Of a stretch of DNA of 64,000 nt, positions 42,276-58,937 are shown in pieces (the first letter of the stretch is position 1; each line of letters starts with the position of its first letter). Made by a program: the position numbers and the translations under genes. Where the stretch lies: positions 108 through 64,107 of the forward strand of contig CAZULG010000005.1 of assembly GCA_964621065.1 (NCBI GenBank). The letters are read 5' to 3'. The stretch comes from an uncultured Methanosarcinales archaeon (GTDB lineage: Archaea; Nanobdellota; Nanobdellia; Woesearchaeales; UBA583). The notes beneath the pieces are model-generated. The model made no database searches and was not told where the DNA came from. It saw only the letters and a program-made list of their open reading frames with translations.

Positions 42276-44020
42276 TTGTTATTACCTCCCATAAAATCTT
42301 TCACTTCTTGATATACTTCCTCAAAGAAAAATGGACGAGCGTCATATCGAAGTCTTTTCTCTTGAATATTTAAACTTGTATTCATTCTAATTAACGAATG
42401 CAATTGTGCTCCAATATTTCCTTCAAATAACATTACTTTGTTTTTCTCAACATCATCTTTGAGTAACTCTTCAACAAATTCCCAATCGCACGGATTGAGA
42501 TATAAAAAATGAATCTGCCTAACTTTTACTCCATCTTCTTCTAGATATTTTCTTGCTTCTTGTAAAATCATTTTATTTGAACCCCAAGACACAAGTGTAA
42601 TATCATAATCTTGAGTTGAACCTAACACTTTTGGACGAGTTCTCTCTTTAGGTATGTTTTGAAGTTTTCTATTTCGCTTCTCCATTTGAAGTCTATGCAT
42701 ATCTCCATCTTCACTCGTCCATCCAGTCTCATCATGTTCATATGAAGAATTTACATGACACGCTCCTTTTTGCCCAATGACTACACGCTGTGAAATTCCA
42801 CTCTCTGTTAACTCATACCTCTTATAATTTTCCATCTCAATATTCTCATCAAAAGGTTGATAATACCCTCTATCAATTTTCAAATTAGATGTATCAAATC
42901 GTTTAGTCATACTTTGTGAATTTGAAATATGTTTATCTAACAATACAATCACAGGAGTTTGCACCAAATCTGCAACATTAAACGCTTCAAAACTCTCATA
43001 AAAACACTCATCTAAATCCCCTGGAGCTAAGACAACTTTTGGAAATTCTCCAGAACCTGAATACAACACATGCATCAAATCCCCTTGATCTGTATATGTT
43101 GGAAGCCCAGTTGAAGGCCCTGCTCGTTGGCACTCAAACATTACTAAAGGGTTTTCAGACATTCCTGCAAATGAAATTGCTTCATTCATCAACGCATATC
43201 CTCCTCCTGATGTTGCACCCATTGCACGAGCTCCTGCAGCTGATGCTCCAATAATATTATTAATCGCAGCAATTTCATCTTCTGCGTGCTTTGTTGTAAT
43301 GTTGTGCGTAATTTCTTTTGCAGCAAAAAATGATAAAAATGAAGATGAAGGAGTCATTGGATACTCACTCACAAACTTTACTCCTGCTTTCAATGCTCCC
43401 AAAGCAGCTGCATCATTTCCACTCATCATAATCATATTTTGAGTAATTTCTTGTTTAAAAATTCTATTCAATCGTTTATGGGAAAAATGCTCAACGATAT
43501 AATCAAAGCCTCTTTGAGCAACTGTAATATTACTCTCAATTAATTCTTTAGATTTTTTTGCAAAGTGTTTTTGAAGAACTTGTGAGAGCATTGAGTTATC
43601 TTCACACATCAGCGCAACTGCTGATCCAAATAATAACGTGTTTTTAAATCGCTTCCCTTCTTCTTTAATTAACTCATCAATAGGTATTGAGACAATATAC
43701 TCATCCACATGCTCCCATTTTTCTAATAATTTTGAATCTGTTAAGACTATTCCGTTATGATTTCTTGAAGGAATATCTTCTTGCAGAGCTAATTGATCCA
43801 GACAAATCACAATATCGTGAAATTTTACTTCTGCACTCACAATTTCATCTTCTGCTCGAATTGAACACGTGTTATGTCCTCCTTTAATTAGAGATGGATA
43901 ATCTGTAGTGTACATCACGTGCAGACCATTCATCTTAAAAAATTTAGAAATTAAGAGTCCAATTGTAAATACTCCTTCACCAGCTGGACCTCCTGCTTTT
44001 AACGAAATTTTATTTTGCAT
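42272..44020 (-). CDS. korA: 2-oxoacid:ferredoxin oxidoreductase, fused gamma-alpha subunit
   Basis: N-terminal gamma-like ISLKAGGPAGEGVFTIG, then alpha-like GNDAAALGALKAGVKFVSEYPMTPSS. Confidence 0.85.
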   Translation of the reverse strand: MQNKISLKAGGPAGEGVFTIGLLISKFFKMNGLHVMYTTDYPSLIKGGHNTCSIRAEDEIVSAEVKFHDIVICLDQLALQEDIPSRNHNGIVLTDSKLLEKWEHVDEYIVSIPIDELIKEEGKRFKNTLLFGSAVALMCEDNSMLSQVLQKHFAKKSKELIESNITVAQRGFDYIVEHFSHKRLNRIFKQEITQNMIMMSGNDAAALGALKAGVKFVSEYPMTPSSSFLSFFAAKEITHNITTKHAEDEIAAINNIIGASAAGARAMGATSGGGYALMNEAISFAGMSENPLVMFECQRAGPSTGLPTYTDQGDLMHVLYSGSGEFPKVVLAPGDLDECFYESFEAFNVADLVQTPVIVLLDKHISNSQSMTKRFDTSNLKIDRGYYQPFDENIEMENYKRYELTESGISQRVVIGQKGACHVNSSYEHDETGWTSEDGDMHRLQMEKRNRKLQNIPKERTRPKVLGSTQDYDITLVSWGSNKMILQEARKYLEEDGVKVRQIHFLYLNPCDWEFVEELLKDDVEKNKVMLFEGNIGAQLHSLIRMNTSLNIQEKRLRYDARPFFFEEVYQEVKDFMGGNNK

Positions 44021-44124
44021 AATTAATATGAGTTATTTTAGTATAAATGAATTTATCACTTCTTTAAAATGGAGAAAGACATATGTGTGAATAATTAGAT
44101 TAAAAATAATAATAATTTTTTAAC

Positions 44125-44153
44125 AAAAGGGGATAGGCAATTTGCCACCCCCT
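44125..44153 (-). terminator. GC-rich hairpin plus T-tract immediately after the leader-distal repeat (candidate pre-crRNA terminator)
   Basis: The minus strand reads GGGGGTGGCAAATTGCCTATCCCCTTTTGTT. The stem is GGGG/GGCA paired with TGCC/CCCC, followed by an oligo-T run. It is the only GC-rich patch in this spacer. Confidence 0.45.
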
Positions 44154-46282
44154 ATCTACAATAGTAGAAATTTTTTAATTTCTTAAATAATTGAGCTTTA
44201 AGATGGTTATATTGTTTCATCTACAATAGTAGAAATTTTTTAATTTTCTTAAATGCAAATACTGAACTTGAGAATAATATTAAGATCTACAATAGTAGAA
44301 ATTTTTTAATTTTCTTAAATTTTCTTCCTTAATCTCTCTAAGGAGCTTATCTACAATAGTAGAAATTTTTTAATTTTCTTAAATGATTTATAGCAACAAT
44401 TCAAAAATCACAACATCTACAATAGTAGAAATTTTTTAATTTTCTTAAATTGTTGAAGGTTATGAATTTGAAGAAATAGATCTACAATAGTAGAAATTTT
44501 TTAATTTTCTTAAATTCCACGAACATTATTTAAGAGATTTAAATCTACAATAGTAGAAATTTTTTAATTTTCTTAAATGAATAGAAGAGGTAACTAAAGA
44601 TGATAGAATCTACAATAGTAGAAATTTTTTAATTTTCTTAAATGCTAATGATTATAAAAATTTAATTCTCTCATATCTACAATAGTAGAAATTTTTTAAT
44701 TTTCTTAAATATTATGCAGTAGAGTTGAAAAAAAATTATCATCTACAATAGTAGAAATTTTTTAATTTTCTTAAATTTGGATTAGAAACTTATCGTATTA
44801 ATACATCTACAATAGTAGAAATTTTTTAATTTTCTTAAATTATTTGTGTAGGAGGATTATAACTCTCTTATCTACAATAGTAGAAATTTTTTAATTTTCT
44901 TAAATATTCTTCATCCTTTAAATTCTTTGATCAAGATCTACAATAGTAGAAATTTTTTAATTTTCTTAAATTAAATATTGAAATATTAGTAATAGTAGAA
45001 GATCTACAATAGTAGAAATTTTTTAATTTTCTTAAATCAAATACTTTGAGATTGGCAGAGATTTTTAATCTACAATAGTAGAAATTTTTTAATTTTCTTA
45101 AATTTGATGATTGTTGTGTTTGAGAATTTACATTATCTACAATAGTAGAAATTTTTTAATTTTCTTAAATTTTGAGTATTTTGAAGCTTACAAGCTATCT
45201 ACAATAGTAGAAATTTTTTAATTTTCTTAAATCTTGTACTGCACTTTGTGCAACTTCTCCAGATCTACAATAGTAGAAATTTTTTAATTTTCTTAAATAG
45301 CAATTGTTAATTTATGCCAATTCCCATATCTACAATAGTAGAAATTTTTTAATTTTCTTAAATCAACAGATAAAATCATTGTTAATATTATCAATCTACA
45401 ATAGTAGAAATTTTTTAATTTTCTTAAATGAGGAGGTTCATTTTATGCATCCCTCCTATCTACAATAGTAGAAATTTTTTAATTTTCTTAAATTTTAGTG
45501 GGTAATGGAGACATTGAATTATTAGAATCTACAATAGTAGAAATTTTTTAATTTTCTTAAATAATAAGTTATCAAAAAAACGCAACATTTAATCTACAAT
45601 AGTAGAAATTTTTTAATTTTCTTAAATATGTAAGTGAAGGACAAGAAGTAAATCAAATCTACAATAGTAGAAATTTTTTAATTTTCTTAAATTTCAACAG
45701 TTGATTCACTATCCCCGTAATATCTACAATAGTAGAAATTTTTTAATTTTCTTAAATGATATTAGGAATGATATTTGTGATATTATTATCTACAATAGTA
45801 GAAATTTTTTAATTTTCTTAAATTGATTGCGATTCCTTCACTACCACCTTTGATCTACAATAGTAGAAATTTTTTAATTTTCTTAAATTAGAACAGTAGA
45901 GCCATCTAATTTTCTTCTATCTACAATAGTAGAAATTTTTTAATTTTCTTAAATAAAATTAGGAATACCTGAGCGAGGATTTCATCTACAATAGTAGAAA
46001 TTTTTTAATTTTCTTAAATTCGTGTGAAGTTTTCGCGTCCAAATCAATTTTATCTACAATAGTAGAAATTTTTTAATTTTCTTAAATAACCATACGGTTT
46101 TAGGTATGGTATACTATCTACAATAGTAGAAATTTTTTAATTTTCTTAAATTTTATTGAGAGATAGAATTGATGAAGATATATCTACAATAGTAGAAATT
46201 TTTTAATTTTCTTAAATTGCCATAAGTCTTATATGCCACACATATAATCTACAATAGTAGAAATTTTTTAATTTTCTTAAAT
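44154..46282 (-). CRISPR. CRISPR array, 33 repeats (36 nt) and 32 spacers (26-33 nt), Cas12a-type repeat
   Basis: The plus-strand unit atctacaatagtagaaattttttaattttcttaaat reads ATTTAAGAAAATTAAAAAATTTCTACTATTGTAGAT on the minus strand, ending in the Cas12a handle stem-loop UCUAC-UAUU-GUAGA-U. My hand count of repeat plus spacer lengths sums exactly to 2129 nt. The distal repeat (44154-44188) is 35 nt, with one T lost. Confidence 0.97.
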
Positions 46283-46514
46283 AGGTCGATTTTAATTAGG
46301 TTTTTCTAAATATAAGGTATTATGCTATTTAAAGAGCTCTTTTATCATTTTAGAAAAATCTCTAAAACTCATTTTGCCTAGTTAAGATATTAATTTTAAA
46401 TTATAATAATATTTAAATATTTGCCTTAAAAGTACTAGAAACTAATAAAAATGATGTTTTTATATTCAGATACAATAAAAATAAAGACTAAGGTTTGCAA
46501 CTTTTGAAAATGAA
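46283..46514 (-). promoter_or_regulatory. CRISPR leader (232 nt, AT-rich) with TATA-like box ~25 nt upstream of first repeat
   Basis: It lies between the cas2 stop and the first repeat. The minus strand reads CCTTATATTTAG at 46306-46317. The degenerate repeat sits at the opposite end of the array, which supports this polarity. Confidence 0.6.
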
Positions 46515-46787
46515 TTAAAACATAACTAAATCCTCCTCCTCATTTTTAGCATATCCATATCTATGAATTTGACAACTTCCACTTAATTCAAAAATCATCA
46601 CACTATCACTTTGTGTAAATTTCTTCTCAAATTTAGATTTGATTTCACTTTTAACAATTTCAAGTAATCTCTTACTATTATTAATCTCATACACCGAGTA
46701 TTGTAATCTTCTTCCATATTCTAAAATAAATTTAGAAAATTGAGTTCTGAGTTTATCATCTTTAATATCATATGTTAAAATAATCAT
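46515..46787 (-). CDS. cas2: CRISPR-associated endoribonuclease Cas2
   Basis: MIILTYDIKDDKLRTQFSKFILEYGRRLQYSVYE is a typical Cas2 N-terminus. Length 90 aa, with a 4-nt overlap with cas1. Confidence 0.9.
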   Translation of the reverse strand: MIILTYDIKDDKLRTQFSKFILEYGRRLQYSVYEINNSKRLLEIVKSEIKSKFEKKFTQSDSVMIFELSGSCQIHRYGYAKNEEEDLVMF

Positions 46788-47758
46788 TTTTTTCCCTCCA
46801 AAGTAAATTTTGAATACTGAGAAATATCATTTTCTTTAATGAAATTTCTATAGTATGATTGAATAAATACAAATATCTCCTCTTTAAAACTTAAAATCTC
46901 TTTTAAGAAAAATTGAGAATACTTTTTATTATATTCCTTCTTAATGAAATATTGACCATTTTTCTCATAAAAGTCATTTCTATCAATTTGTTTTAAATTA
47001 AATCCTTTTCTAATTTTTCTATCAATAATACATCTAAACGGTTCAATAATATCACAAACTAACGATTTACGTTGATAAAATAATGTGTGATGAACTCCAT
47101 AATACGTATCAAATCCATATAATTCTAAATTTGCTTCAATAAAATTAAATAAATAATGATAACCAATATCTAAAAGTAAATTGAAAATATCCTCTTTTGC
47201 TCGTGGTCTTCTTCCTTTAAAATCCAAATTTTTAAAATACACTTTGAAAAATAACTTTGAAGCATTTCCTTCAATTCCTAACATCTCCTGATTAGAAGAA
47301 CAACTATTAATTTGAGAAATTAAAAATTTCATTTTATCAATATGTAATTTCTCCTGAGTTGTTTTATAACGCAGAGATTTCATTAAATATAATTGATTTT
47401 CAACTTTATTTGAAATTAAAAATTTAGAAATTTCTAATTTATTAACATCCAAATACTGCTTTTTTCTCAATAAAAAATTTCCTTTATTTTCAGGAATAAC
47501 ACTATAATACATTTTCAAATTAAAATTTAAAAAGATAATTGGAAAAGAAAATCTCTTAGCTTGTTTAATCAATACAGAAGTAATTGAAAACTCTCCATAA
47601 ATAAACACTAAAAATATTTTATGACAAGAATGCTGTAAAATCGTTTTATTATTCTCATCAACTACAACTAAATTAGAATTTCTAAATTTAATTTTCTTTG
47701 AAGAATCACTATCAATAAATAATAGTTGTTTTGACATAAAATCAGGTCTTGACATCAT
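46784..47758 (-). CDS. cas1: CRISPR-associated integrase Cas1
   Basis: GIEGNASKLFF, NLLLDIGYHYL and GVHHT...LVCDIIEPFR are the conserved Cas1 E, N..L..GY and H...D/E boxes. Length 324 aa. Confidence 0.9.
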   Translation of the reverse strand: MMSRPDFMSKQLLFIDSDSSKKIKFRNSNLVVVDENNKTILQHSCHKIFLVFIYGEFSITSVLIKQAKRFSFPIIFLNFNLKMYYSVIPENKGNFLLRKKQYLDVNKLEISKFLISNKVENQLYLMKSLRYKTTQEKLHIDKMKFLISQINSCSSNQEMLGIEGNASKLFFKVYFKNLDFKGRRPRAKEDIFNLLLDIGYHYLFNFIEANLELYGFDTYYGVHHTLFYQRKSLVCDIIEPFRCIIDRKIRKGFNLKQIDRNDFYEKNGQYFIKKEYNKKYSQFFLKEILSFKEEIFVFIQSYYRNFIKENDISQYSKFTLEGKK

Positions 47759-48309
47759 TTTTTATAATAATCACACAATTCCTTGTAAATACACATTTCA
47801 CATTTTTTAGGATTTTGAGAAAATAAGGTGTCAAATAAATCAAAACTTCTCATTTGTGAAATAACTTCTTTCAATCGTCTTTTATTCTCATCAGTTGGTA
47901 AATCAATTGAAATTTTAGAATTATTTTTCATAGAATAAAAACTCAATTTCTCAACCTCATAACCCATTTCAATTAAACAAAAATATTGACTCCAAATTTG
48001 TAAATAATATCCTTCATAAATAGTTTTAATAACATTCTTTCTCTCAATGAGTTCTTTATTATCTAAATCTAATAAATCAATTTTTCCAATAACTCCTAAC
48101 TCTTCACTATAAATATCAATTCCTTGTAATATATTCTTTTTTGATGAATATGTTTGAGTATCTACATTCTTATGAGCATCTTTTCCTTTTTGTTGATATG
48201 TTGAGTGAAATACTTTTTCATCAAATTGATAATACAAATTATGAAAATAAATTGAACGAGGACAGAAAATAAAGTCATTTAAATTAGAGATAATGATATT
48301 TTCCTCCAT
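47755..48309 (-). CDS. cas4: CRISPR-associated exonuclease Cas4
   Basis: N-terminal Cys (FIFCPRSIYF) plus a C-terminal CEMCIYKELC four-Cys cluster. RecB-type IDLLDL...ELIERK and YLQIWSQY (QxxxY) motifs. Confidence 0.9.
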   Translation of the reverse strand: MEENIIISNLNDFIFCPRSIYFHNLYYQFDEKVFHSTYQQKGKDAHKNVDTQTYSSKKNILQGIDIYSEELGVIGKIDLLDLDNKELIERKNVIKTIYEGYYLQIWSQYFCLIEMGYEVEKLSFYSMKNNSKISIDLPTDENKRRLKEVISQMRSFDLFDTLFSQNPKKCEMCIYKELCDYYKK

Positions 48310-48311
48310 TT

Positions 48312-51300
48312 TTATTTTTTTAAATAATTGAGATTTCTAAATGTTTTAATTCCAATTTGATATGCTCCATTATTATCACCAGTTTCAATAAAATTAATAT
48401 TTTTTAATTTTAGACTATGTTTTATAGTGGAATCATTTGTAGAATCATAACCACACTCATTACAGATTAATTTATCTCCGTTTTTAAAAAGTCTTTTAGT
48501 TTTCAAACTATCACAATTGGGACATTTCTTAGATGTATAACTAGGATCCACAAAAAAAATTCTTCCAAATTGTTTATATTGTAAATCTGCTTTTTCAATT
48601 CCAATATTTTCATAATTTTCAACACTTCTAAAAGGAGGAACTAAATGCAATATTTCACTATTCTTATTTGGAATTTTAAATAATTTTTTTAACAATTGCA
48701 TTTCAAAATAATGATAAGTTCCAAGACCTGCTAATTTTGCATTTGCAACTTTCTTATAATCAACATCACTTTCTTTTGAATTATCTTTATAACTTTTTTC
48801 TAGTATAATCCCATTTAAGCCATCAATATAGCTTACCCAACATTTTGATAAATTTTCAACAGAAATATAAATATTGTAGTTATACTTTTCAATAAAATAA
48901 TTAATTACACCTATCATATTTGCAGTAATACCTTTTTTTAATCCATCAGCAGAATCTAATTCTATTATACGATTAATTTCTTTTTCTCTATCTTTTTCAG
49001 AAATATTTTCATCAGTCATAACTTCTTTAAAGTTATTTAATAAATCTAAAATTTCTTTATGATTTAAATTTTCATATTTTTCTCCAACTCCAAAAGCAGA
49101 TATTAAAGTACTTTCTTTTAATTTTTTAATTTTTTCACAATCATCATTACTATTTGCAATTCTTAAAATTAAATCTTTATTTTCTTTGTTTTGCATTTGA
49201 TATTGTAATTTTCTTCTATATGCTAGTTGTTTTAATTTAATATTTTGATTATTTTCTTTTAAATTATCTTCTTCAAATCCTTTAAATCTGTCTTTTTTAA
49301 CTTTTATTTTACTTAAATCAACTAATACTTTTTCTCCTTTAATCGTTGTTTCAACTCTTAAATTTGTTAAATCCAAAATATTTCTCTCTTCTAAAAAAAT
49401 ATGCTCCCAAATCTTTTTTTCAGTATCAAAACTTCTTGTGTAAATATAAAAATTTCCTTGTATTTCACCATCTTGATTTAATATACATAAAGTAGCTAAG
49501 CACTTTTCTCCTCTATCAATACCTAAAATGTAAAAAGGTTTATTTTTAATAAAACTGTTTTCATTAAATATTTTAATTTCGTTTATTAAATTTCTTTTTT
49601 TATATAATTCTAAAACCTCTTTCTTTGAGAATCCTTGATTTTGTGGAACTATTTCACATAAAAATTGAGCATTTAATTGAAATCTAGAATATCTTTTACC
49701 ACTAGGATAATTAGGAGTTGAAAATCTATAACTTAAATCAATTTCTGGATGTAGTCTATAATTAAGACTATTTTCATCAAAAATTAAATTCCAATCCTTT
49801 GTAAATTGATTTTTTAAATTTTTTTTTTGAGAGATTAAATTTTGATTTACAATAGGAAAAATAAAACAACCTTTATCTTTAATTAATTCATTTACTTTTT
49901 CTTTTGAGAGATTAAATTTCTTTAAAATATATCCTTTTTTATCAATTTCTTTTTCAATATCTTCATAAAAATTACAATTAGAAAAATTAAAATTAAATTC
50001 ATTCCAATATTGAATTTTTGCCATAGTTGATTCTTGTAAAGAATTTTTTAATATATTTAAAAAATATTTATTTTTTTTAGTTTTGTCCCAATTAATTTTA
50101 ATTTCATTAAAATCATAGTCTAAATTAAATTCTTTATATGCTCCTTTATTTTTAATAATTTTAATTAAGGTTTTAGATGTCAAAGATTTAACATAAAATC
50201 CTTTTAGGTTCCCATTATTTTTTTTAAGTAAATCTTTATATAAAATATCTTTATAATTTTTAGGAATTGTTAATACATATTTATCTTTGTTTTCATCTTC
50301 TATAACTATCCCTAAATCCTCAATTTTATTTATTTCATATCTCTCATTTAGCTTATCTCTTAACTCAGAAAATTTTTTTCCATAATCTTGTGAAAGAGTT
50401 TTAAATATTTGTGTTAATTTTTTATATTCTTTAATATTATTTTTTTGCTCACCTCTTTTAAGACCTAACTTTTGTTTTGCTTTATTATAATCTTTGTATA
50501 AATCAGAATTATTTTCTTTATTATTTATTCTACCCTCATCACTCAAATTAATCCAACTAATAATATTTTTATTTATACTGCCAATATCATCATTTTTATT
50601 AAAAGCAGGAATTTTTTTGTTTTGATTAATCTCAATTTTAAATTCTTTTAACTCATTCAATATTTCTTTAACTTTTTGTTTATATTCTTCTAAGTTTTTA
50701 TTTCTATTTTTGAAATTATTATTATAATCGATATTTTTTAATTGATCTTTTAGATACGAAAGTTTTGAAAATAAAATAAAATTATCATTACTCTTAATAT
50801 TAATCTCAAAGTTAGTTTTTAAAAAATTTTCACATAATTCTCTATCAAAACTTACTTCATAATATTCACTTTTAGCTAAATTCTCCCAAGCATAATCAAA
50901 AGCTAATTTTATAGGGTAATTATTTAAATCAAAAACTTCTTTTTCCTCGTTATATTCTTTTCCAATTTCAATATTTTCTCCAATATTATTTAAAATTGTA
51001 TAAATTTCATCTTGATTTAAATTTAAATCTTGTTTATAATTTTCCTCTAAAAATTTTGAAAGCTCATATTTAACAATCGGTTTTAATGGTTTAGATTTAA
51101 ACAATTGAATTGATTGAATTAAAATATTTAATTTTGCTTTTTCTTCTTTATCATTTTTTTTATAGACTGAATTTTTAAAATGTTCTATTTTTTCATTTTT
51201 ATTTAAAAAAAAATTTCTAATTTCAAATTTATTTTTACTTTTTAAGCTATTTAATAAATCAATTAATTTTAGTTCAGAAATAATATCTTTGATTTCCAAA

Positions 51301-52139
51301 TTATAATTTTCAACCTTTTTCTCTAAAGTATAAGGGTTCAAAGTAATTTTTTTATAAAATGAATTCCCTCCATAATATTTAAATAAATTTTTCAATTCTT
51401 CAATTTGGTTTTCTAATTCAATTCTTAATTCATCATTAACACCAAAGTATTTCCAATTATTTTTTTTATTTTCATATAAAAAGTTCAAATCTAGAAAAGT
51501 TATACTCTTATCATTTAAAGGTTTTAAAATTTCATTTGCTATATTAAATATAGCTAAACTTTTTTTTCTAAAATCAACTAAATTTGGTTTTTGATTTGAT
51601 AAATTATTTTTAAGAGTTAATTCATATTTTTGAATCTCAAATTCCAACTCCTTTTGCAATTTTTGAAAATAAAAAAAATTCTTATTCCAATAATTTGTAA
51701 TTTTATCTTTATTTAATAATGAATTTAAAGAAGTATTATCAGAATAAATTATTCTTACACATTTTTTTTGTTTTTTAGAATATTTTTCCTTTGGAATATC
51801 AAATAAACATTTTCTTCCAAGAATTCTATAATACTCTTTAATTATGAAAAGTTTATCACTTCTTATATAAATATTTCTCCATTCCTTATAAAAAGAATTA
51901 ATTTTAGTTATACAATCTTTAACTTCTATAAGTAATTCTTCTTCATTAAAGTCTTTCTTAGTATATAGACTCTCTTTTAATTTATCATAAGTATTTTTAA
52001 TTTCATTTTCTAACACTTTATGAGTGTAATGTGTTTTTTCTTCATTTCTAATATAATTTTTTTCATAATTTAAAGAAAGTGCAAATCTAATTGTCTTATT
52101 TAAACTATATCTATTTTTCATATAACTATATTCTTCCAT
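48312..52139 (-). CDS. Second, divergent type V effector: Cas12a2-like nuclease (Cas12a paralogue with inserted domain and zinc ribbon)
   Basis: N-terminal YSLNKTIRFAL and processing-like LHPEI...SGKRYSRFQLNAQF. RuvC-I ILGIDRGEK (Asp codon 49515-49517), RuvC-II ISVENLSK (Glu 48855-48857), RuvC-III TGDNNGAYQIG (Asp 48375-48377). The D-to-E spacing is 220 aa, against 90 aa in the neighbouring Cas12a. A CPNC...CNEC zinc ribbon (48453-48524) replaces the Nuc region, and there is no LQ(L/M)RNS motif. Confidence 0.75.
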   Translation of the reverse strand: MEEYSYMKNRYSLNKTIRFALSLNYEKNYIRNEEKTHYTHKVLENEIKNTYDKLKESLYTKKDFNEEELLIEVKDCITKINSFYKEWRNIYIRSDKLFIIKEYYRILGRKCLFDIPKEKYSKKQKKCVRIIYSDNTSLNSLLNKDKITNYWNKNFFYFQKLQKELEFEIQKYELTLKNNLSNQKPNLVDFRKKSLAIFNIANEILKPLNDKSITFLDLNFLYENKKNNWKYFGVNDELRIELENQIEELKNLFKYYGGNSFYKKITLNPYTLEKKVENYNLEIKDIISELKLIDLLNSLKSKNKFEIRNFFLNKNEKIEHFKNSVYKKNDKEEKAKLNILIQSIQLFKSKPLKPIVKYELSKFLEENYKQDLNLNQDEIYTILNNIGENIEIGKEYNEEKEVFDLNNYPIKLAFDYAWENLAKSEYYEVSFDRELCENFLKTNFEINIKSNDNFILFSKLSYLKDQLKNIDYNNNFKNRNKNLEEYKQKVKEILNELKEFKIEINQNKKIPAFNKNDDIGSINKNIISWINLSDEGRINNKENNSDLYKDYNKAKQKLGLKRGEQKNNIKEYKKLTQIFKTLSQDYGKKFSELRDKLNERYEINKIEDLGIVIEDENKDKYVLTIPKNYKDILYKDLLKKNNGNLKGFYVKSLTSKTLIKIIKNKGAYKEFNLDYDFNEIKINWDKTKKNKYFLNILKNSLQESTMAKIQYWNEFNFNFSNCNFYEDIEKEIDKKGYILKKFNLSKEKVNELIKDKGCFIFPIVNQNLISQKKNLKNQFTKDWNLIFDENSLNYRLHPEIDLSYRFSTPNYPSGKRYSRFQLNAQFLCEIVPQNQGFSKKEVLELYKKRNLINEIKIFNENSFIKNKPFYILGIDRGEKCLATLCILNQDGEIQGNFYIYTRSFDTEKKIWEHIFLEERNILDLTNLRVETTIKGEKVLVDLSKIKVKKDRFKGFEEDNLKENNQNIKLKQLAYRRKLQYQMQNKENKDLILRIANSNDDCEKIKKLKESTLISAFGVGEKYENLNHKEILDLLNNFKEVMTDENISEKDREKEINRIIELDSADGLKKGITANMIGVINYFIEKYNYNIYISVENLSKCWVSYIDGLNGIILEKSYKDNSKESDVDYKKVANAKLAGLGTYHYFEMQLLKKLFKIPNKNSEILHLVPPFRSVENYENIGIEKADLQYKQFGRIFFVDPSYTSKKCPNCDSLKTKRLFKNGDKLICNECGYDSTNDSTIKHSLKLKNINFIETGDNNGAYQIGIKTFRNLNYLKK

Positions 52140-52149
52140 TTTTCAATTA

Positions 52150-52992
52150 TTATCTCTTATCTTCTCCCAATTTATTACTTTTAATTTCATCAAAATAATT
52201 CTCTTTTGAAACTACTTTTTGTTTTGTTTCTTTTTCTAATTCAACTCGTGCATTTTTTGCAATAGTTCCACCTTTTTTTGCATCTTTATTTAATTTATCA
52301 AAACCTTTTGAATCATTAACTTGAGTAATTTCAGTAGTTGCTCTCTCACCTAACATTGAAAAAATTAACTCTAAATCACTCATATGATCTCTTAAATTTG
52401 CTTTTGTTTTCAAAGGAAAATTCTTAATCTCTTTATGTTCATTAATTGATACTTCAAATGTTGCTTTATGAATTTCATTAGTTAAAATTGCAAAGTCTTT
52501 TGGTTTTTCAATACCTCTATTTCTCCATTCATCAGTTAATTCTTGTCTAATTGCAATTCCTCTAAGTCGTTTATCAATCCAATCTTTTGGATACCCTTTT
52601 AATTCATAATATTCTTTAACCCTATTTTGAGCAAGTTCTGGATTCTCTATTTCTTCAATTCTCTCTTGCCCTAATTGTGCAAGCCACATTTTAAAAGGTT
52701 CAGCTCTTTTTGAAGGAATTGACTGAATAATTCTAAAAGCACCTTTTGTAGTAGTACAATTCATTTTTTGAACTCCTCCTTTTGTTTCAACTTCAAGGAT
52801 ATGGACAATTTGTCCCCACCCTTCAAATAGTCCTAAATCTCTTTTTTTTAATTTATTAATATAATCCTTTACATTAACACTTTGAGTTATAGCATAGACA
52901 ATATCTTCCACAACATACCACCATTCATCATTAAACCAAGTTCTTCTAATTCGTTTATCTTCAAAAACAATAATTTTATTTTTCTCATCCAT
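52150..52992 (-). CDS. Bro-N domain / DinD-like (phage antirepressor-type) protein embedded between the two effector genes
   Basis: The N-terminal IIVFEDKRIRRTWFNDEWWYVVEDIVYAI... is Bro-N-like. The C-terminal LRDHMSDLELIFSMLGERATTEI...GGTIAKNARVELEKETKQKV parallels E. coli DinD as I recall it. I use the ATG at 52992; the track's TTG at 53013 would overlap the cas12a stop. Confidence 0.65.
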   Translation of the reverse strand: MDEKNKIIVFEDKRIRRTWFNDEWWYVVEDIVYAITQSVNVKDYINKLKKRDLGLFEGWGQIVHILEVETKGGVQKMNCTTTKGAFRIIQSIPSKRAEPFKMWLAQLGQERIEEIENPELAQNRVKEYYELKGYPKDWIDKRLRGIAIRQELTDEWRNRGIEKPKDFAILTNEIHKATFEVSINEHKEIKNFPLKTKANLRDHMSDLELIFSMLGERATTEITQVNDSKGFDKLNKDAKKGGTIAKNARVELEKETKQKVVSKENYFDEIKSNKLGEDKR

Positions 52993-53003
52993 TTTTTTTA
53001 ATA

Positions 53004-56000
53004 TTAACTCCAATTTCTTCTAATCATTTCATTTAAAAATTCATTTCTCTCTATTTTTAAGTCATTAAATTTGATTTTTTCTATATCTTCAAATTCTTTA
53101 ATCTTATTTAATACCATTAAACCTTTAAGTCCAATATGATATGCTCCGTTACAATCAGCATTATCAACTTCTTCTTTATTTGCATTTCTTGAATCAAAGA
53201 AATATCCTTTTTTATTTTTTACACAAGATAAAATATAATCTCCTTCTTTCTCAGTAATTTTATTAATTTTTAATTCATTATCTGTATACGAATTTCTAAG
53301 TTGTAAAATTAATTTCAAATTTTTAATTATATTCTCTAAGAAAAATTTATTTTGTTTTACAATATCATCAATTAAATTTTGAGACTCTTCAATTTTAATA
53401 TTAAAATCATTAAATAATTTTTTTAACTCTTCATTGACATTAACAGATTTTGTTGTCCAATTATTATTTTGATTTTTATCTCTACTTTGAACTAATTTAA
53501 TTCCATTTGAATAAATTTTCCAGTCATCCTTAACTAAATCTTTAACTCCAAAAGAAGAATACTTAAATGAGAACTCAAACAAATCTTCATCTTTTAAATA
53601 TCTTATTGAATCAAATTTGTTGATAAAATCTTTTGCTTGACTCTCATTCTCATACTTAGGATATAATCTATTTACAAATGCAGTTTTTGGACAAATTTTT
53701 GAAGTTAAATAAGGATCAATGTAAAATAAAATACCAGTTTGTTTTCCAATATCTTTTAAAACATTGACTTCGGGTGTTAATTGATATGCTTTTAAATTTC
53801 CTCCTATTTCGTCATTTTTTTTGTCTTTAAATACTAAAAAATTTAATTTAGAAATTAACATTTTCTCAAATTTTTCATATACTTGTTTCTCAACTTTAAA
53901 TCTTCCTCTCTTAAACCCATAATTCAAATCTTCTAATACAATTATTGCATTATTTTCAACTGCAATTTTTGAGATTTTGTGAATAATTTGGGACAAAAAT
54001 CCTTCTTTTAGTTCTTTGATTGTAGAAATATTTTGCCAAGACTTTCTTTTCTCATCTCTTTCTTTTTCAAGTTTAGACAATTTCTGATGATAATTAACTT
54101 TCCTATTAAAAGAATCGTTAATTAAGTTAAATGAACCTTTTTCTTTGATATTTCCTTTTGTATCAAGCAATGTATAATACAGTAAATGCCTTTCTCCTCT
54201 ATCCAAACTTAAAATATTAATATTTTTAGAATTTTGTTTAATCACTTTATTAACTTCATTATTAATTCTAACTCTTGAATTTGATTTGAAGTTTAATGTT
54301 ATTGGAACATGAAATAAAACTTTATCTTGAGTATACCTTTTATTTTTACCAATATCGTAAGAAAATAAACTTTCTTCTTTTCCATTAATAGGATCTTTAT
54401 TTTTTGTTGGTAAATTTTTTGGATGAGTTGGTTTATATTCTATTGATTTCTCCCTATAGAAAATTTCAGCCTGTCCATTTAATTTAAATACAACATCCTC
54501 TAAATTTTCTTCAGAAAATAACTCTTCAAAATACATCGTATGAAGATTTTTCTTAGAATTATAATTCTCTTTTTTAATTTTATTTTGAGAAAAATCTTTG
54601 TTATAGATTTGAAATAAGTATAATTTATTCTCTTCAACAAGTTGCTTAATATATTCTTCATTAATTTTTTTGAAATTTAATTGATAACAAGAACTCTCTA
54701 CATCAAAATAAAATTGTGAAATATCTTCATACTCTCTTGATTCTTTCCAATTAAATTTAAAATGTTTATAAGATTCGTGCCTTTGAAATCCAAGTTTAAA
54801 ATAATCAATTAGTTTTACTAAAGATTCTTTGAATTTAGAAAAATTTGTTTTTCTAAATTCTGTTTTAAAATAACCTTTATCATAAATTTCAATTATTTCT
54901 TGAACTGGCAGATTATACTTTTCAACATTTGGTGAAAAATTATCTCCTTTTGATCTAATAAAAAGTCTAGGAATATTTTTATTATCTGGTTTCTGAAAAT
55001 CATAATTGAGGATTTCAAAATTCCCTTTATTGACTGAAAAATCATTTTCATTATTTTCAATTTTCTTAGGAGAGATTGCAATATAATAATTGGTTTTGTT
55101 ATTTATTTTCTTTTTTAAAATTACAGCAGATTTAGTTTCAAAATTTGAATCCCAACCATTTAAAAAACTACTAGATTGAAAATTTAATTTAAATTTTTGA
55201 GTTGAAAAAGGTTTTTGAGAAATATAGTTTCTAACTTTATTATATAGGGGAGTAATTTGAGATATTAAATTTAATAACTCATCATATATCTGATAAAAAT
55301 GTTCATCCCTATACTCATTTTCAAATTTTAATAGTTTCACAAAATGATAATAGTTTTGAAGAGCATCTAAGAATTCTTTAATTACGTTGACAACTTCATT
55401 ATATTTATCTTGAGTTAATTTTTTTTGACTCTCATTTTTAAATTCTTCAAATTTAATTGAATTAAAAGACTTATATGAATCTTCAATATTTTTTAATAAA
55501 TCTATTGATTTATGTTCAACTGAAAACTTAAAATCCTTAAAAAAATCAAATAATGTAATAATTTCATCAGAATCATCTCTTGTTTCTTTAATTCTTGAAA
55601 TTGAGTTTTGAATTTCTTTAAAACAAAAATAATCAGTTTTCAGATATTTCTCAATTTCCTCTTGTTGTTTTTTATTTAACTTCTCAATATCATAATTTCT
55701 TGATTTAATATACTCTCTTTTCAAATCTTCTTTAATTACATTATAATCTCCAAAAATATTTTGAGAAATATCAGAAATAAACTTTCCATTTTTAATTTTT
55801 ATTAGACTTAAATCAAAGTTTTCAGAGTCCAAGTTTTCAAATAGATTGGAAAATTCATCAAATTGATTTTTAGAATTTAAATTATTATAAAATTCATCAA
55901 TTTTTGTTAAAACTTCATAATCTGAATTGAATTTATCAAATGTGAATAAACTTTCTTTATCACTTAAAATTTGATTAAATAAAACTTGTAATTTTGATTT

Positions 56001-56876
56001 TTTCAAAATTTTAATTTGCTCTCTAGTCAAATCCTTATCTCTTTGAATTAACTCATTAATTCTAGAATTAATTTTCCCAATTATCCTTTTATTATATTTT
56101 TCAATTCCACTTTGATTTAAAAATAAATTATAATTTTGTATTGATAAAAATTCAAGTAAAGTTAGACCTTCTAATTCATCTTTCAATTCAACTTGTAACT
56201 CTCCAAATTTATCATTTGAAACCTCTAATATTTTTTTGAATTTATCATAATTTGCTAAGTATTTAGGCAAATTATCATCAACAATTCTGTAAAATATTGA
56301 AGTTGGTATATTATTCTCACTAAACACATTTTCTCTATTTGAATTAAATCCTGTAAAATAAGTGGTAAATCCTTTAAACTTCTCAACTAATTTTTTATCT
56401 TCAATCCTATTTCTCTTATCTAACCACAAAGGTAGAACTTTTTCATAAAATTCTTTTTTAAAAAATGTTGAGAACTCGTCTTTAAATTTTAATTTAACTA
56501 ACTCCTTCAAATTTTTTCTAAGTTCTTTATTTAATTTATCAAAATTATCTCTTTTATTTTTATTTTGCTTATCTCTAATAAATTCTAAATAAATATTTTC
56601 AAATTCCTCAAGTTTAGTTTTTGATATTTTTGTGAATTTTAAACTTCTCTCAATAAACTCTTTAAAGTACTCATCTGCAATTTTTTTTACTATCTTAAAA
56701 TCTTCATTTCTTTGCTTATCTTCTTCAATTATTTTTTCAATCGAATTCAAGCTTTCATCAATCACCAGTTCTTCTCCATCAAATCCAACTGGTTTTAGCT
56801 CAAAACGTAGTGTTTTACTTAAACTATACTGATTAGTTAGTCCTCCCCAGATATTTTCTGTATTCATTTGTTGCAT
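53004..56876 (-). CDS. cas12a: Type V-A effector Cas12a (Cpf1)
   Basis: N-terminal TNQYSLSKTLRFELKPVG and WED processing motif THPKN...KNKRYTQDKVLFHVPITLNF. RuvC-I LSLDRGERHLLY (Asp 54201-54203), RuvC-II IVLEDLNYGFK (Glu 53931-53933), IDPYLTSK, Nuc motif ILQLRNS, RuvC-III NADCNGAYHIGLKG (Asp 53154-53156). Spacings of 90 and 259 aa are typical of Cas12a. Confidence 0.95.
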   Translation of the reverse strand: MQQMNTENIWGGLTNQYSLSKTLRFELKPVGFDGEELVIDESLNSIEKIIEEDKQRNEDFKIVKKIADEYFKEFIERSLKFTKISKTKLEEFENIYLEFIRDKQNKNKRDNFDKLNKELRKNLKELVKLKFKDEFSTFFKKEFYEKVLPLWLDKRNRIEDKKLVEKFKGFTTYFTGFNSNRENVFSENNIPTSIFYRIVDDNLPKYLANYDKFKKILEVSNDKFGELQVELKDELEGLTLLEFLSIQNYNLFLNQSGIEKYNKRIIGKINSRINELIQRDKDLTREQIKILKKSKLQVLFNQILSDKESLFTFDKFNSDYEVLTKIDEFYNNLNSKNQFDEFSNLFENLDSENFDLSLIKIKNGKFISDISQNIFGDYNVIKEDLKREYIKSRNYDIEKLNKKQQEEIEKYLKTDYFCFKEIQNSISRIKETRDDSDEIITLFDFFKDFKFSVEHKSIDLLKNIEDSYKSFNSIKFEEFKNESQKKLTQDKYNEVVNVIKEFLDALQNYYHFVKLLKFENEYRDEHFYQIYDELLNLISQITPLYNKVRNYISQKPFSTQKFKLNFQSSSFLNGWDSNFETKSAVILKKKINNKTNYYIAISPKKIENNENDFSVNKGNFEILNYDFQKPDNKNIPRLFIRSKGDNFSPNVEKYNLPVQEIIEIYDKGYFKTEFRKTNFSKFKESLVKLIDYFKLGFQRHESYKHFKFNWKESREYEDISQFYFDVESSCYQLNFKKINEEYIKQLVEENKLYLFQIYNKDFSQNKIKKENYNSKKNLHTMYFEELFSEENLEDVVFKLNGQAEIFYREKSIEYKPTHPKNLPTKNKDPINGKEESLFSYDIGKNKRYTQDKVLFHVPITLNFKSNSRVRINNEVNKVIKQNSKNINILSLDRGERHLLYYTLLDTKGNIKEKGSFNLINDSFNRKVNYHQKLSKLEKERDEKRKSWQNISTIKELKEGFLSQIIHKISKIAVENNAIIVLEDLNYGFKRGRFKVEKQVYEKFEKMLISKLNFLVFKDKKNDEIGGNLKAYQLTPEVNVLKDIGKQTGILFYIDPYLTSKICPKTAFVNRLYPKYENESQAKDFINKFDSIRYLKDEDLFEFSFKYSSFGVKDLVKDDWKIYSNGIKLVQSRDKNQNNNWTTKSVNVNEELKKLFNDFNIKIEESQNLIDDIVKQNKFFLENIIKNLKLILQLRNSYTDNELKINKITEKEGDYILSCVKNKKGYFFDSRNANKEEVDNADCNGAYHIGLKGLMVLNKIKEFEDIEKIKFNDLKIERNEFLNEMIRRNWS

Positions 56877-56987
56877 ATTTCATTTATGAAAATTAGCTTT
56901 ATAAATATGTCTCCTGTAATAAGTAGAAAAAAATAAACTTAATAAAAACAAATCTTATAAATTACAATACACTTTATTGATATAGAA
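56877..56987. promoter_or_regulatory. Divergent promoter region with two TATA-like boxes ~22-25 nt from each ATG
   Basis: tttataaata at 56898-56907 lies about 22 nt upstream of the cas12a ATG (56876, minus strand). cttataaatt at 56954-56963 lies about 25 nt upstream of the gatE ATG (56988). No Shine-Dalgarno-like sequence is seen, so the geometry suggests leaderless mRNAs. Confidence 0.4.
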
Positions 56988-58937
56988 ATGTCACAATTAT
57001 CAAAACTCCTCTTTCTCAAAGACTTACAAGAACTCAATTATGAAGATATCAAACTCACAGCAGGTCTTGAAATTCATCAACAACTCAATACAGGAAAATT
57101 ATTCTCACAAGCACCGTGTAAAATCGTTCCAAATGAAGAGTTGAATAAATCAATTACACGAAAACTCAGGTTTTCAAAAGCAGAAGATGGTTCAGTTGAT
57201 AAAGCAGCAATGCACGCATTTGTTCAGCAAAATACGTACAAATACTATTATAATGATGAAATTGCAACACTTGTTGATTTAGACGAAGAACCGCCAACAA
57301 AGCCTAATGAGCAAGCACTTCACACTGCCATTCAAGTTGGACAAATGCTTAATATTTCATTTTTCAACACATTTGTATTTATGCGAAAACTCATTGTTGA
57401 TGGATCAATAACAAGTGGATTTCAACGAACTGCATTATTGGGAGTGAGTGGAAATATTTCAACAAATCATGGTGAAATTCCAATTCATGCAATTAATTTA
57501 GAAGAAGACTCATCAAGAATAATTTCAAAAGAGACCAATGAGCACATTTACGCACTTGATAGACAAGGAATCCCACTCATTGAAATTACAACTGGGCCAG
57601 TTATGCACACTCCTGAAGCGGTTCAAGAAGTTGCACTTGAAATTGGAAATATTTTGAGAAGTTTTAGGGCAACAAGAAGAGGGCTTGGAACAATTCGACA
57701 AGACGTGAATGTCTCAGTAGGTGTTGGTCAAAGAGTTGAGATTAAAGGAGCACAAAATTTAGAACTTATTCCTCAAGTCATTATCGCAGAAGCAAAACGA
57801 CAACTCATTATGCACTCAATTCAAGAAGAGTGTAAACTCAGAAATATTACACCTCAAAATATTAACGAACATTCACAAATTCAAGAAATAACTCAACTAT
57901 TTCAATTTACAACTGCAAAGGTGATTTCTCAAGCACTAAAACAAGACAACTCAGGTGTGTTTGCAATTCCTCTTCACAATATGAGAGGAATACTTGGACA
58001 CGAAATTCAAGATAATTATCGATTTGCAACAGAAATCTCAAATAGAAATAAGAAACGATTCACTCAAATTAGAGGATTATTTCACAGCGATGAACTACCA
58101 AATTATGGGATGAGTAAAGAAGAAGTCAGCTCAATATATCAAGCACTCAATATTGACAAAGAGCATGATGGGTTTATTCTCCTCGCGCACAACTCAACTA
58201 TTGCAAAACAATCACTTGAATACATAAAAGAAATTATTTGTGAGTTAATTCAAGGAGTTCAAGAAGAAGTAAGACAAGTTGATCCTAAAGGAACAATCAC
58301 CCAATTTCTCAGACCAATGCCTGGTGCAAGTAGAATGTATCCTGAAACAGACATTTTTACAATTCCTCGCAAATCAATTCCACTTCAAAAGCTACAAGAA
58401 ACACTTCCTGAAAAATATGATCACAAAATTAAACGATTAGAAAAAGAATTCAATTTAAATAAAGATGAGATCCTCTCACTACTTGAAAAATATGAAGAAG
58501 ACACAATTACTACACTCATTGAATCAACTCATCTCAAAGCTAAAGAATTATATAACTACATCATCACCATTCCAAAAGATATTAAAAAACGAGAACAAAT
58601 TGAACCCGTTGACTTCTCACACGAGCTCCTTCACGATTTACTCACAACAATTACAAAAAATAATATGAACACACAAAGTATTCGAGACATATTTATCTCA
58701 CTCTATCAAAAACAAATTCAAGATGCAATTAATGTTGAACAATATTTACAAGAAAATAATTTACTCCAGGAGCAACTCGGTGTTGATGAAATTCGAGCAT
58801 CAATTCAAACAATTATTGGACAAAATCCAAATGCACCTTTTGGAGCATTAATGGGATTGTGTATGAAAGAGTTCGGAAAACAAGCAGATGGAAAAATTAT
58901 TAGCAAAATTTTAAATGAAGAACTCAGTAACAAATAA
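56988..58937 (+). CDS. gatE: Glutamyl-tRNA(Gln) amidotransferase subunit E (archaeal)
   Basis: LTAGLEIHQQLNTGKLF, LDEEPP and the GatB/E core with a YqeY-like tail. The 649-aa length fits GatE rather than GatB. Confidence 0.85.
   Translation: MSQLSKLLFLKDLQELNYEDIKLTAGLEIHQQLNTGKLFSQAPCKIVPNEELNKSITRKLRFSKAEDGSVDKAAMHAFVQQNTYKYYYNDEIATLVDLDEEPPTKPNEQALHTAIQVGQMLNISFFNTFVFMRKLIVDGSITSGFQRTALLGVSGNISTNHGEIPIHAINLEEDSSRIISKETNEHIYALDRQGIPLIEITTGPVMHTPEAVQEVALEIGNILRSFRATRRGLGTIRQDVNVSVGVGQRVEIKGAQNLELIPQVIIAEAKRQLIMHSIQEECKLRNITPQNINEHSQIQEITQLFQFTTAKVISQALKQDNSGVFAIPLHNMRGILGHEIQDNYRFATEISNRNKKRFTQIRGLFHSDELPNYGMSKEEVSSIYQALNIDKEHDGFILLAHNSTIAKQSLEYIKEIICELIQGVQEEVRQVDPKGTITQFLRPMPGASRMYPETDIFTIPRKSIPLQKLQETLPEKYDHKIKRLEKEFNLNKDEILSLLEKYEEDTITTLIESTHLKAKELYNYIITIPKDIKKREQIEPVDFSHELLHDLLTTITKNNMNTQSIRDIFISLYQKQIQDAINVEQYLQENNLLQEQLGVDEIRASIQTIIGQNPNAPFGALMGLCMKEFGKQADGKIISKILNEELSNK

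Follow-up and report, generated by a model that had tools for sequence, protein, structure and literature searches.

The stretch of DNA analysed here (the window: 64,000 nucleotides (nt) of contig CAZULG010000005.1, assembly GCA_964621065.1) carries a CRISPR-Cas locus with one array and two different Cas12 effector genes. Open reading frame (ORF) calls on the minus strand gave, in the order of transcription, cas12a, a gene with a Bro-N domain (the Bro-N gene), a gene for a second large protein of 1275 amino acids (aa), cas4, cas1, cas2, the leader and the array (Table 1). All six ORFs are co-oriented; going down the operon, the first three junctions are gaps of 11, 10 and 2 nt, and the last two are overlaps of 4 nt each. 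The Bro-N gene is placed 11 nt past cas12a and 10 nt ahead of the gene for the 1275-aa protein. Gene order, strand, the two effector lengths (1290 and 1275 aa) and the junctions (gaps of 2-11 nt and 4-nt overlaps) were found exactly as a preliminary description of this DNA had reported them.

Table 1. Coordinates of the features discussed in the text; positions refer to the window or, where a locus is named, to that locus.
Feature	Sequence	Positions	Strand	Basis or remark
cas12a (1290 aa), type V-A effector, apparently intact	window	53004-56876	-	TIGR04330, Pfam, FnCas12a alignment
Bro-N/DdrC-like gene, 280 aa from ATG, 287 aa from upstream TTG	window	52150-52992	-	Pfam, PADLOC PDC-S13
cas12a2 (1275 aa), type V-A2 effector, apparently intact	window	48312-52139	-	phmmer versus SuCas12a2, neighbour-joining tree
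cas4 (type V)	window	47755-48309	-	TIGR04328 cas4_PREFRAN, 236 bits versus cutoff 70
cas1 (type V)	window	46784-47758	-	TIGR04329 cas1_PREFRAN, 355 bits versus cutoff 300
cas2	window	46515-46787	-	TIGR01573 and Pfam CRISPR_Cas2 (general cas2 model)
Leader, 232 nt, AT-rich	window	46283-46514	-	TATA-like motifs at 46308-46315 and 46326-46333
CRISPR array, 33 repeats of 36 nt, 32 unique spacers	window	44154-46282	-	repeat analysis
GC-rich hairpin, then TTTTGTT, directly after the last repeat	window	44128-44153	-	terminator-like; putative end of the array transcript
TATA-like box TTTATAAA, 22-29 nt upstream of the cas12a ATG	window	56898-56905	-	read from the sequence; candidate archaeal promoter
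Divergent intergenic region gatE/cas12a, 111 nt	window	56877-56987		
2-oxoacid:ferredoxin oxidoreductase alpha gene (edge of hotspot interval)	window	42272-44020		
gatE (edge of hotspot interval)	window	56988-58937		
DpnI-like restriction enzyme	window	39451-40221	-	Pfam DpnI and DpnI_C; PADLOC mREase_II, E 8.5e-84
RelA/SpoT-family protein	window	24730-26682	-	TIGR00691, above cutoff
MutL homologue	window	37281-39230	+	
Large ORF, 964 aa	window	11055-13949	+	
Large ORF, 606 aa	window	16175-17995	+	
Large ORF, 731 aa	window	18008-20203	+	
Bro-N copy in a defence operon	L014	7001-7831		
Bro-N copy in a defence operon	L016	7001-7840		
Bro-N copy in a defence operon	L021	1545-2375		
Bro-N copy in a defence operon	L103	5007-5903		
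Further Bro-N copies in defence operons	L044, L063, L069, L074, L081, L094, L100			
Apparent Bro-N/methyltransferase fusion, 1211 aa	L046	1486-5121		
Bro-N gene, Ca. Chlorohelix plasmid	L104	5001-5852		NZ_CP128402.1
Fragmented cas12a2, Bacteroidales	L011	9800-10759		
Array collapsed to a single repeat, Logan assembly	L002	6300-6720		

The identity of the 1275-aa protein was assessed by homology searches and by mapping functional residues from the published SuCas12a2 positions by alignment. In phmmer searches it matched SuCas12a2 (8d49) with an E value of 6.7e-225, residues 8-1273 aligning to residues 6-1231, and it resembles the neighbouring Cas12a at short motifs only. Both large proteins carry the N-terminal motif YSL[SN]KT[LI]RF and an H-P...K-R-Y motif; these shared motifs and the intact RuvC acidic residues, which the preliminary description had pointed out, were all recovered. 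The RuvC triad (D875/E1095/D1255, equivalent to D848/E1063/D1213 of SuCas12a2), the zinc-ribbon cysteines (C1206/C1209/C1226/C1229, equivalent to C1170/C1173/C1188/C1191) and the processing lysine (K815 of the KRY motif, equivalent to K784) are kept, and the clamp residues F500, W1101 and Y1128 are aromatic. Pfam matched a TNB zinc ribbon and no Nuc domain. Recent literature (2026, PMC12851939) divides the clade into Cas12a2, Cas12a3, which cleaves tRNA tails, and Cas12a4. Compared with the labelled FASTA references of that paper, the protein scored 559 bits against Ba3Cas12a2 in phmmer and gave no phmmer match to the three Cas12a3 (Ba1, Ba4, ca1) or the one Cas12a4 (ApCas12a4). In a neighbour-joining (NJ) tree, a distance method run with no bootstrap, it fell within the Cas12a2 clade on its own long branch. 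Our data indicate that the 1275-aa protein is a Cas12a2 orthologue and not a Cas12a, Cas12a3 or Cas12a4, in agreement with the earlier proposal that the second Cas12-like gene belongs to the Cas12a2 clade. A decayed Cas12a was considered and ruled out, as the residues are intact and the family is a different one; Cas12a3 and Cas12a4 were ruled out by the missing phmmer match and the NJ placement.

Homologues of this protein are rare. An exhaustive phmmer search with residues 1-1200 as query returned 44 matches at E <= 1e-30 among 1.84 billion representatives, and no full-length homologue among them is more than 45% identical to the window protein. A word-indexed search found 7 matches only, probably owing to the low-complexity, AT-rich composition. 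The nearest NCBI relative is annotated as 'hypothetical protein'.

The first gene of the locus encodes Cas12a, as had been claimed. The protein scores 1033 bits against the equivalog model TIGR04330 (cutoff 300), has matches to all of the Pfam domains REC1, REC2, PI, RuvC and Nuc, and aligns to FnCas12a with an E value of 5e-248; the residues aligned with those of FnCas12a include the RuvC motifs (IDRGER, EDLN, DCNGAY), the Nuc arginine (QLRNS) and the RNase H/K/K residues. The adaptation genes are of the same kind, cas4 and cas1 passing the type V-specific (PREFRAN) models. Both effectors are full-length, and the alignments show the catalytic and CRISPR RNA (crRNA)-processing residues and, for Cas12a2, the zinc-ribbon residues to be intact. 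One could still imagine a locus working with a single nuclease, the other effector being a decaying remnant. Such decay does occur: in the tandem locus of a member of the Bacteroidales (L011), cas12a2 was matched in fragments only (residues 383-631 and 1164-1271), which suggests decay of the second effector in some lineages. In the window, both ORFs are uninterrupted and every catalytic or processing residue that was checked is in place, and we regard a remnant as highly improbable.

The organization of the array was examined by repeat analysis. Of the 33 repeats, 32 are identical 36-mers; the remaining one, the leader-distal copy (44154-44189), is degenerate. No spacer occurs twice among the 32, whose lengths are 26-33 nt (mean 29.4 nt). 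On the minus strand the repeat reads ATTTAAGAAAATTAAAAAATTTCTACTATTGTAGAT; it has AAUUUCUACUAUUGUAGAU at its end and folds as a 5-bp UCUAC/GUAGA hairpin. With 32 identical 36-mers adjoining type V cas genes, the pattern cannot be due to chance. No further copy of the repeat core is present on either strand of the window. The preliminary description had counted 33 repeats in a single array behind a 232-nt leader and had recognized the canonical Cas12a handle at the repeat end, and all of this agrees with our coordinates and with the predicted hairpin. The 19-nt handle does not differ from that of the SuCas12a2 crRNA in the supplement of Dmytrenko et al. Nine bacterial Cas12a2 loci were fetched for comparison, and every one with a captured array has the same 19-nt handle and a single array, with or without cas12a. 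The handle in the window's repeat is exactly that used by both enzyme families, and array and adaptation module each occur once.

Spacer composition and array length were considered separately. The mean GC content of the spacers (0.30) is close to that of the host genome (0.28-0.31), unlike that of the cas genes (~0.21), a value to be expected if the spacers target host-adapted elements. In a Logan assembly of the same locus (L002) the 33-repeat array is collapsed to a single repeat, an assembly artefact which indicates that array length in short-read assemblies is unreliable.

Signals for transcription were read from the sequence. The TATA-like box TTTATAAA lies in the divergent intergenic region between gatE and cas12a, and a similar motif precedes the Bro-N gene of a syntenic relative (L013). 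We infer that this box is a candidate promoter of a leaderless operon transcript. The box, the tight junctions and the lack of an internal terminator fit a single leaderless transcript of the operon; the hairpin with its T-run behind the last repeat is the sole terminator-like site in positions 43900-57100 and corresponds to the start coordinate 44125 of the preliminary description. A sigma-70 promoter scan gave matches no more numerous than in shuffled sequence, a model that is inapplicable to archaea, and Rfam and tRNA scans of the window gave zero matches.

The host was assigned from the genes around the locus. GatE, whose gene directly flanks the locus, scores above its curated cutoff, and the sole match of the CCA-adding enzyme is of the archaeal type. 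The closest named GatE relatives are from metagenome-assembled genomes (MAGs) of Nanoarchaeota (74%) and Woesearchaeota, and the closest relatives of Cas12a2 and of the Bro-N protein are likewise named Nanoarchaeota or Woesearchaeota. Going by these genes, the host is a DPANN archaeon, Nanoarchaeota/Woesearchaeota-like, and the impression of an archaeal-looking genome in the preliminary description was correct. In the window, the whole 12.9-kb CRISPR locus lies between the 2-oxoacid:ferredoxin oxidoreductase alpha gene and gatE; in sister genomes this interval is occupied by two or six unrelated genes (L018/L019 and L020) or by a Bro-N gene (L013). The GC content at third codon positions is 0.10-0.18 in the CRISPR locus versus 0.21-0.26 in the flanking genes. 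Since the interval varies among the sisters and this value is lower than in the flanks, the CRISPR locus is cargo in a variable hotspot.

The same data bear on the question of whether a bacterial CRISPR contig could have been misjoined to archaeal DNA during assembly or binning. The sequence is MAG-derived, the GC content of the cas genes is below that of the flanks, and the array is collapsed in the second assembly, as such an artefact might produce. However, the stretch from the Bro-N gene through cas2 is joined to these very oxidoreductase genes in an independent Logan assembly, three sister archaeal contigs share the synteny of the flanks, and the adaptation module and repeat recur with 91% identity in a second Nanoarchaeota MAG. 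A misjoin is therefore hardly credible.

This second MAG, PBR18_bin24 (locus L021), carries cas12a2, a Bro-N gene, cas4, cas1 and cas2, with no cas12a upstream of cas12a2. The leader is conserved, and from cas4 through cas1, cas2 and the leader to the first repeat the two loci are 90.8% identical in DNA, with a near-identical repeat. As cas12a is missing from a sister genome whose adaptation module is ~91% identical, the pairing of both effectors in the window is recent or unstable. The slot of the Bro-N gene differs as well: it lies between cas12a and cas12a2 in the window and between cas12a2 and cas4 in PBR18_bin24, and the PBR18_bin24 copy is nearer to a copy embedded in a restriction-modification (R-M) operon (81%) than to that of the window (75%). 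That the two archaeal Bro-N copies are simple orthologues was ruled out on these grounds, the different slots and the nearer R-M-embedded copy. The cas12a2 locus of PBR18_bin24 sits outside the hotspot interval, beside housekeeping genes.

The gene between the two nucleases had been treated as incidental in the preliminary description, but it proved to be the most unusual part of the locus, both in its predicted fold and in its recurrence in defence operons. Its product has an N-terminal Pfam Bro-N domain (5e-10), matches the PADLOC candidate PDC-S13 (PDLC04920) with an E value of 3.8e-100 over positions 1-273 of 286, and matches the uncharacterised phrog_15286 with 2e-72. No NCBIfam model was matched, and a search against PDB sequences gave no match at E <= 1. 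Of the label 'Bro-N/DinD-like' given earlier, the Bro-N part stands with the Pfam match, whereas 'DinD' goes back to JGI names of homologues only, and orthology to E. coli DinD is not established. The family is very large and spans archaea and bacteria; each of the 8000 candidates scored reached E <= 1e-20, and many of them are 60-90% identical.

Structural relatives were sought with an AlphaFold2 model of the Bro-N protein (predicted local distance difference test score 84.5). In a Foldseek search of the PDB with the full-length model, the six best matches were all DdrC (7qvb, 7udi and 8u0g being among the DdrC structures), and with the helical C-terminal domain modelled alone the six best were again DdrC, with template modelling (TM) scores up to 0.59. 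For both models the Foldseek probability is 0.99-1.00, yet the TM scores are 0.31-0.59 and the root-mean-square deviations 5-15 A. In these predicted models, DdrC is the only significant structural match of the Bro-N protein. DdrC of Deinococcus radiodurans is a damage-induced dimer that binds and bridges nicks and double-strand breaks and has been described as lacking homologues outside Deinococcus (PMC11347143). A literature search on PDC-S13 and on Bro-N or DdrC together with CRISPR found nothing relevant; its coverage is incomplete, and it is weak evidence. If the DdrC match is real, the 'Deinococcus-unique' fold belongs to a very large bacterial and archaeal family.

The genomic contexts of Bro-N genes were then compared. 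Close relatives lie in a type III R-M operon and, in a type I system, between hsdS and hsdM, with junctions that overlap by 4 nt. The syntenic relative L013 has a Bro-N gene of 86% identity that directly adjoins gatE, and no cas12a separates the two. A survey covered 80 metagenomic loci, with neighbours taken from our own ORF script in a bulk scan and then confirmed individually. The confirmed orders were CasE, Bro-N, Cas1 (twice, type I-E); Cas9, Bro-N, Cas1; Cas9, Bro-N at a contig end; Cas12a, Bro-N; Cas4, Bro-N, Cas1; and Bro-N, Cas1. Confirmed R-M neighbours were of types I, IIG and III. Among the 74 loci with a recovered Bro-N ORF, at least about 9 are CRISPR-adjacent and at least about 6 R-M-adjacent, and both counts are lower bounds, many of the contigs being short. 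An annotated isolate sequence in RefSeq, plasmid pACLO of Arcobacter cloacae, shows the order cas5b, cas3, ATPase, cas4, Bro-N, cas1b, cas2. Overall, Bro-N genes were found with CRISPR types I-B, I-E, II, V-A and V-A2 and with R-M types I, IIG and III, and their usual slot in CRISPR loci is after the effector or cas4 and before cas1. In the Bro-N tree, the CRISPR-embedded copies fall into at least four clades and are interleaved with R-M-embedded copies, which suggests repeated independent insertion. The simplest reading of these sequences is repeated independent capture by DNA-cutting defence operons, preferentially at the boundary between effector and adaptation genes.

Two further arrangements were seen. 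In L046, a 1211-aa ORF appears to fuse an N-terminal Bro-N/PDC-S13 part to an Eco57I/MmeI-like type IIG methyltransferase; if this is no ORF-calling artefact, it supports a functional link with restriction enzymes. On a Ca. Chlorohelix plasmid (L104), a Bro-N gene lies ~4 kb upstream of a WYL-domain gene and a type I-D cas3, with transposases between them, so that the CRISPR association is loose. Members of the family are rare on plasmids, and among 50,697 phage records only 4 contained one, all of them unannotated fragments. A phage anti-defence gene was ruled out by this count.

It seems possible, if doubtful, that PDC-S13 is a hitherto unrecognised accessory widely shared by CRISPR systems of types I, II and V and by R-M systems of types I, IIG and III, which senses the nicks or ends made by a nuclease and either blocks repair of the invader DNA or feeds fragments from the breaks to Cas4-Cas1-Cas2. 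Channelling of fragments to Cas4-Cas1-Cas2 would explain the repeated position of the gene at the effector/adaptation boundary. On the other hand, the gene might be a selfish or neutral passenger cassette that settles at permissive junctions in exchanged defence islands and has no role in immunity. Several findings would suit a passenger: the two related archaeal Cas12a2 loci have the gene in different slots, and each of their copies has a closer relative elsewhere; copies from CRISPR and from R-M loci are intermingled in the tree; bacterial Cas12a2 loci lack the gene; and many homologues stand beside unrelated genes. Against this, the protein is very strongly conserved (~60 invariant columns across 40 sequences) and always intact, the copies are co-oriented with gaps of 0-10 nt or 4-nt overlaps, and the same slot (after an effector or cas4, before cas1) recurs in types I-B, I-E, II and V. 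Also, no transposase, integrase or repeat accompanies the gene, and it is nearly absent from phages and plasmids. We therefore treat a passenger as a tentative alternative. A third possibility is that the Bro-N protein regulates transcription of its host operon, in the manner of R-M controller proteins, and restrains Cas12a2 or HsdR. In favour of this, the Bro-N domain binds DNA, relatives bear the annotation antirepressor, and all of the host systems are potentially self-toxic. A regulator nevertheless seems unlikely: the gene lies in the middle of the operon and not at the promoter, the sole structural match of its predicted product is a break-binding protein and not a repressor, and no conserved operator-like repeat was seen.

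Taking the locus as a whole, we consider it likely that it is a horizontally acquired V-A/V-A2 locus with a two-effector mechanism and an accessory Bro-N gene in a DPANN archaeon. The operon would probably be read as a single transcript from the TATA box beside gatE, and the leader would drive one minus-strand pre-crRNA from which, by analogy with SuCas12a2 and FnCas12a, each nuclease would excise its own crRNAs. Going by the orthologues, Cas12a should cut invader double-stranded DNA (dsDNA) flanked by TTTV, and Cas12a2 should be armed by a crRNA-complementary transcript with an A-rich flank; the 3' flank of the RNA that activates SuCas12a2 is GAAAG (supplement of PMC9811890). Because an A-rich flank is the complement of the protospacer-adjacent motif of Cas12a, spacers chosen for Cas12a would also suit Cas12a2 if the target strand is transcribed, and only spacers of this kind could arm it. 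Activated Cas12a2 would nick and degrade DNA and RNA non-specifically in trans, arresting the infected cell; such shredding on sensing of a transcript would catch invaders that escape or inhibit Cas12a. Two-tier immunity is in this respect a reasonable inference from homology. The Bro-N protein, most likely a functional accessory, would bind the nicks or ends made by a neighbouring nuclease and, in what is the most speculative step, could block the repair of breaks or hand fragments to the adaptation machinery.

Several points weigh against this interpretation. The sequence derives from a MAG, and no characterised orthologue shares more than ~40% identity with the window Cas12a2. The likeness of the Bro-N protein to DdrC is one of fold only, with 10-15% identity in the structural alignments and no sequence homology. 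None of the 9 bacterial Cas12a2 loci contains the Bro-N gene, so Cas12a2 does not need it for its function. An exact scan of IMG/VR with 4 high-complexity spacers gave 0 protospacers, and all 32 spacers, searched at up to 4 mismatches against the window and all fetched loci, gave 0 matches and no self-targets. To our knowledge, no study has dealt with abortive infection by DNA damage in archaea, or by genome shredding in organisms without the bacterial SOS response.

The remaining point concerns the output of Cas12a2. The clamp position Y1080 of SuCas12a2 aligns to I1112 of the window protein by a 4-residue indel, in an indel-rich stretch with Y1118 nearby, and an isoleucine at this position means that the dsDNA-shredding activity could differ. 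The protein may thus have diverged towards cleavage of RNA or tRNA only after activation, like Cas12a4 or Cas12a3. The activities are labile in this part of the tree (PMC12851939), and the long branch of the window protein would be in line with this. Its full-length match is to Cas12a2, however, with no phmmer similarity to the Cas12a3 and Cas12a4 references, and three of the four clamps are aromatic, whereas Cas12a3 entirely lacks those regions (PMC12851939). A diverged output is thus rather improbable, and DNA degradation by Cas12a2 remains our preferred assumption for the two-effector mechanism.

If the accessory role of the Bro-N protein holds, it would link cutting by Cas12a and nicking by Cas12a2 to spacer acquisition or to irreversible killing, and the protein could be a useful modulator for Cas12a/Cas12a2 tools. 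A DdrC-like protein working with DNA-cutting defence enzymes would be a new accessory class common to CRISPR and restriction. If the accessory role is false, the locus just adds one more case to an architecture already described. The family and its recurrent embedding in defence operons are the part most worth following up.

Other genes of the window were also noted. A DpnI-like methyl-directed type II restriction enzyme is encoded 4 kb from the array, and the same neighbourhood of sister contig L018 contains DpnII and two methyltransferases, which suggests that the region is a small defence neighbourhood. Further away lie genes for a long RelA/SpoT-family protein and a MutL homologue, bacterial-type functions that are unusual in archaea and possibly horizontal acquisitions. 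Three consecutive large ORFs (964, 606 and 731 aa) gave no NCBIfam match at E <= 1e-10.

To place the locus among known systems, it was compared with five of them. Like canonical type V-A (FnCas12a/Cpf1), the window has a Cas12a with all five domains and all catalytic residues, PREFRAN-type adaptation genes and a 36-nt repeat with a UCUAC-N4-GUAGA hairpin; it differs in the second effector and the Bro-N gene between cas12a and cas4. With Cas12a3 and Cas12a4, which are RNA-activated (PMC12851939), the window protein shares RuvC, the zinc ribbon and the crRNA-processing region, but it groups with Cas12a2 in the NJ tree and is aromatic at 3/4 clamp positions. The Bro-N protein resembles DdrC in its predicted two-domain build of an N-terminal DNA-binding and a helical C-terminal domain. 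DdrC is described as confined to Deinococcus, whereas the Bro-N family is very large, found in two domains of life and embedded in defence operons. The anticodon nuclease PrrC is nested in the EcoprrI type I R-M locus, and the Bro-N family gene is similarly a conserved extra gene between hsd genes of a type I R-M operon. However, its product lacks nuclease and ATPase domains, and the family also occurs in several CRISPR types.

The closest known systems are the tandem V-A/V-A2 loci. Dmytrenko et al. (2023, PMC9811890) found cas12a2 and cas12a in tandem beside a shared array in some systems and showed that Cas12a2 uses Cas12a repeats and resists most Cas12a anti-CRISPRs; SuCas12a2 was also described by Bravo et al. 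(2023, PMC9849127). Dmytrenko et al. propose that the pair widens immunity and backs up against escape mutants and anti-CRISPRs, and they left open how both enzymes cooperate on one array. Five of the nine bacterial loci (L004, L006, L008, L009 and L011; from Bacteroidia, Leptospiraceae, SR1, Ignavibacteria and Bacteroidales) have the order cas12a, cas12a2, cas4, cas1, cas2; in three, cas12a2 stands alone, and L010 is too incomplete to classify. The preliminary description was right that cas12a2 sometimes sits next to cas12a. Its statement that such a locus had not been studied is contradicted for the tandem architecture by that paper and these five loci; it appears to stand only for the archaeal host. 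Both the architecture and the idea of a 'back-up nuclease' were published in 2023, and this core is not new. A 2025 classification mentions the long-standing view that archaea have no class 2 systems, or few, and discusses only II-D for DPANN, and no archaeal Cas12a2 is contained in the supplements of Dmytrenko et al., in the sequence set of the Cas12a3 paper (PMC12851939) or in a 2026 orthologue survey. The present sequences thus look to be the first Cas12a2 and the first tandem V-A/V-A2 locus documented in an archaeon. The nested DdrC-like gene, with its recurrence in defence operons, looks new as well. The window shares with the published tandem loci the gene order, co-oriented cas12a and cas12a2 genes with one adaptation module and one array, the identical 19-nt crRNA handle and, in Cas12a2, the full-length match with RuvC triad, zinc ribbon and processing lysine kept. 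It differs in its extra gene between the nucleases, absent from 9/9 bacterial loci, and in its archaeal host, the orthologues in the cited papers being bacterial or unassigned. The locus thereby adds an archaeal example to the question of cooperation between Cas12a and Cas12a2, for which the sister genome with a ~91%-identical adaptation module, a near-identical repeat and Cas12a2 only provides a natural comparison.

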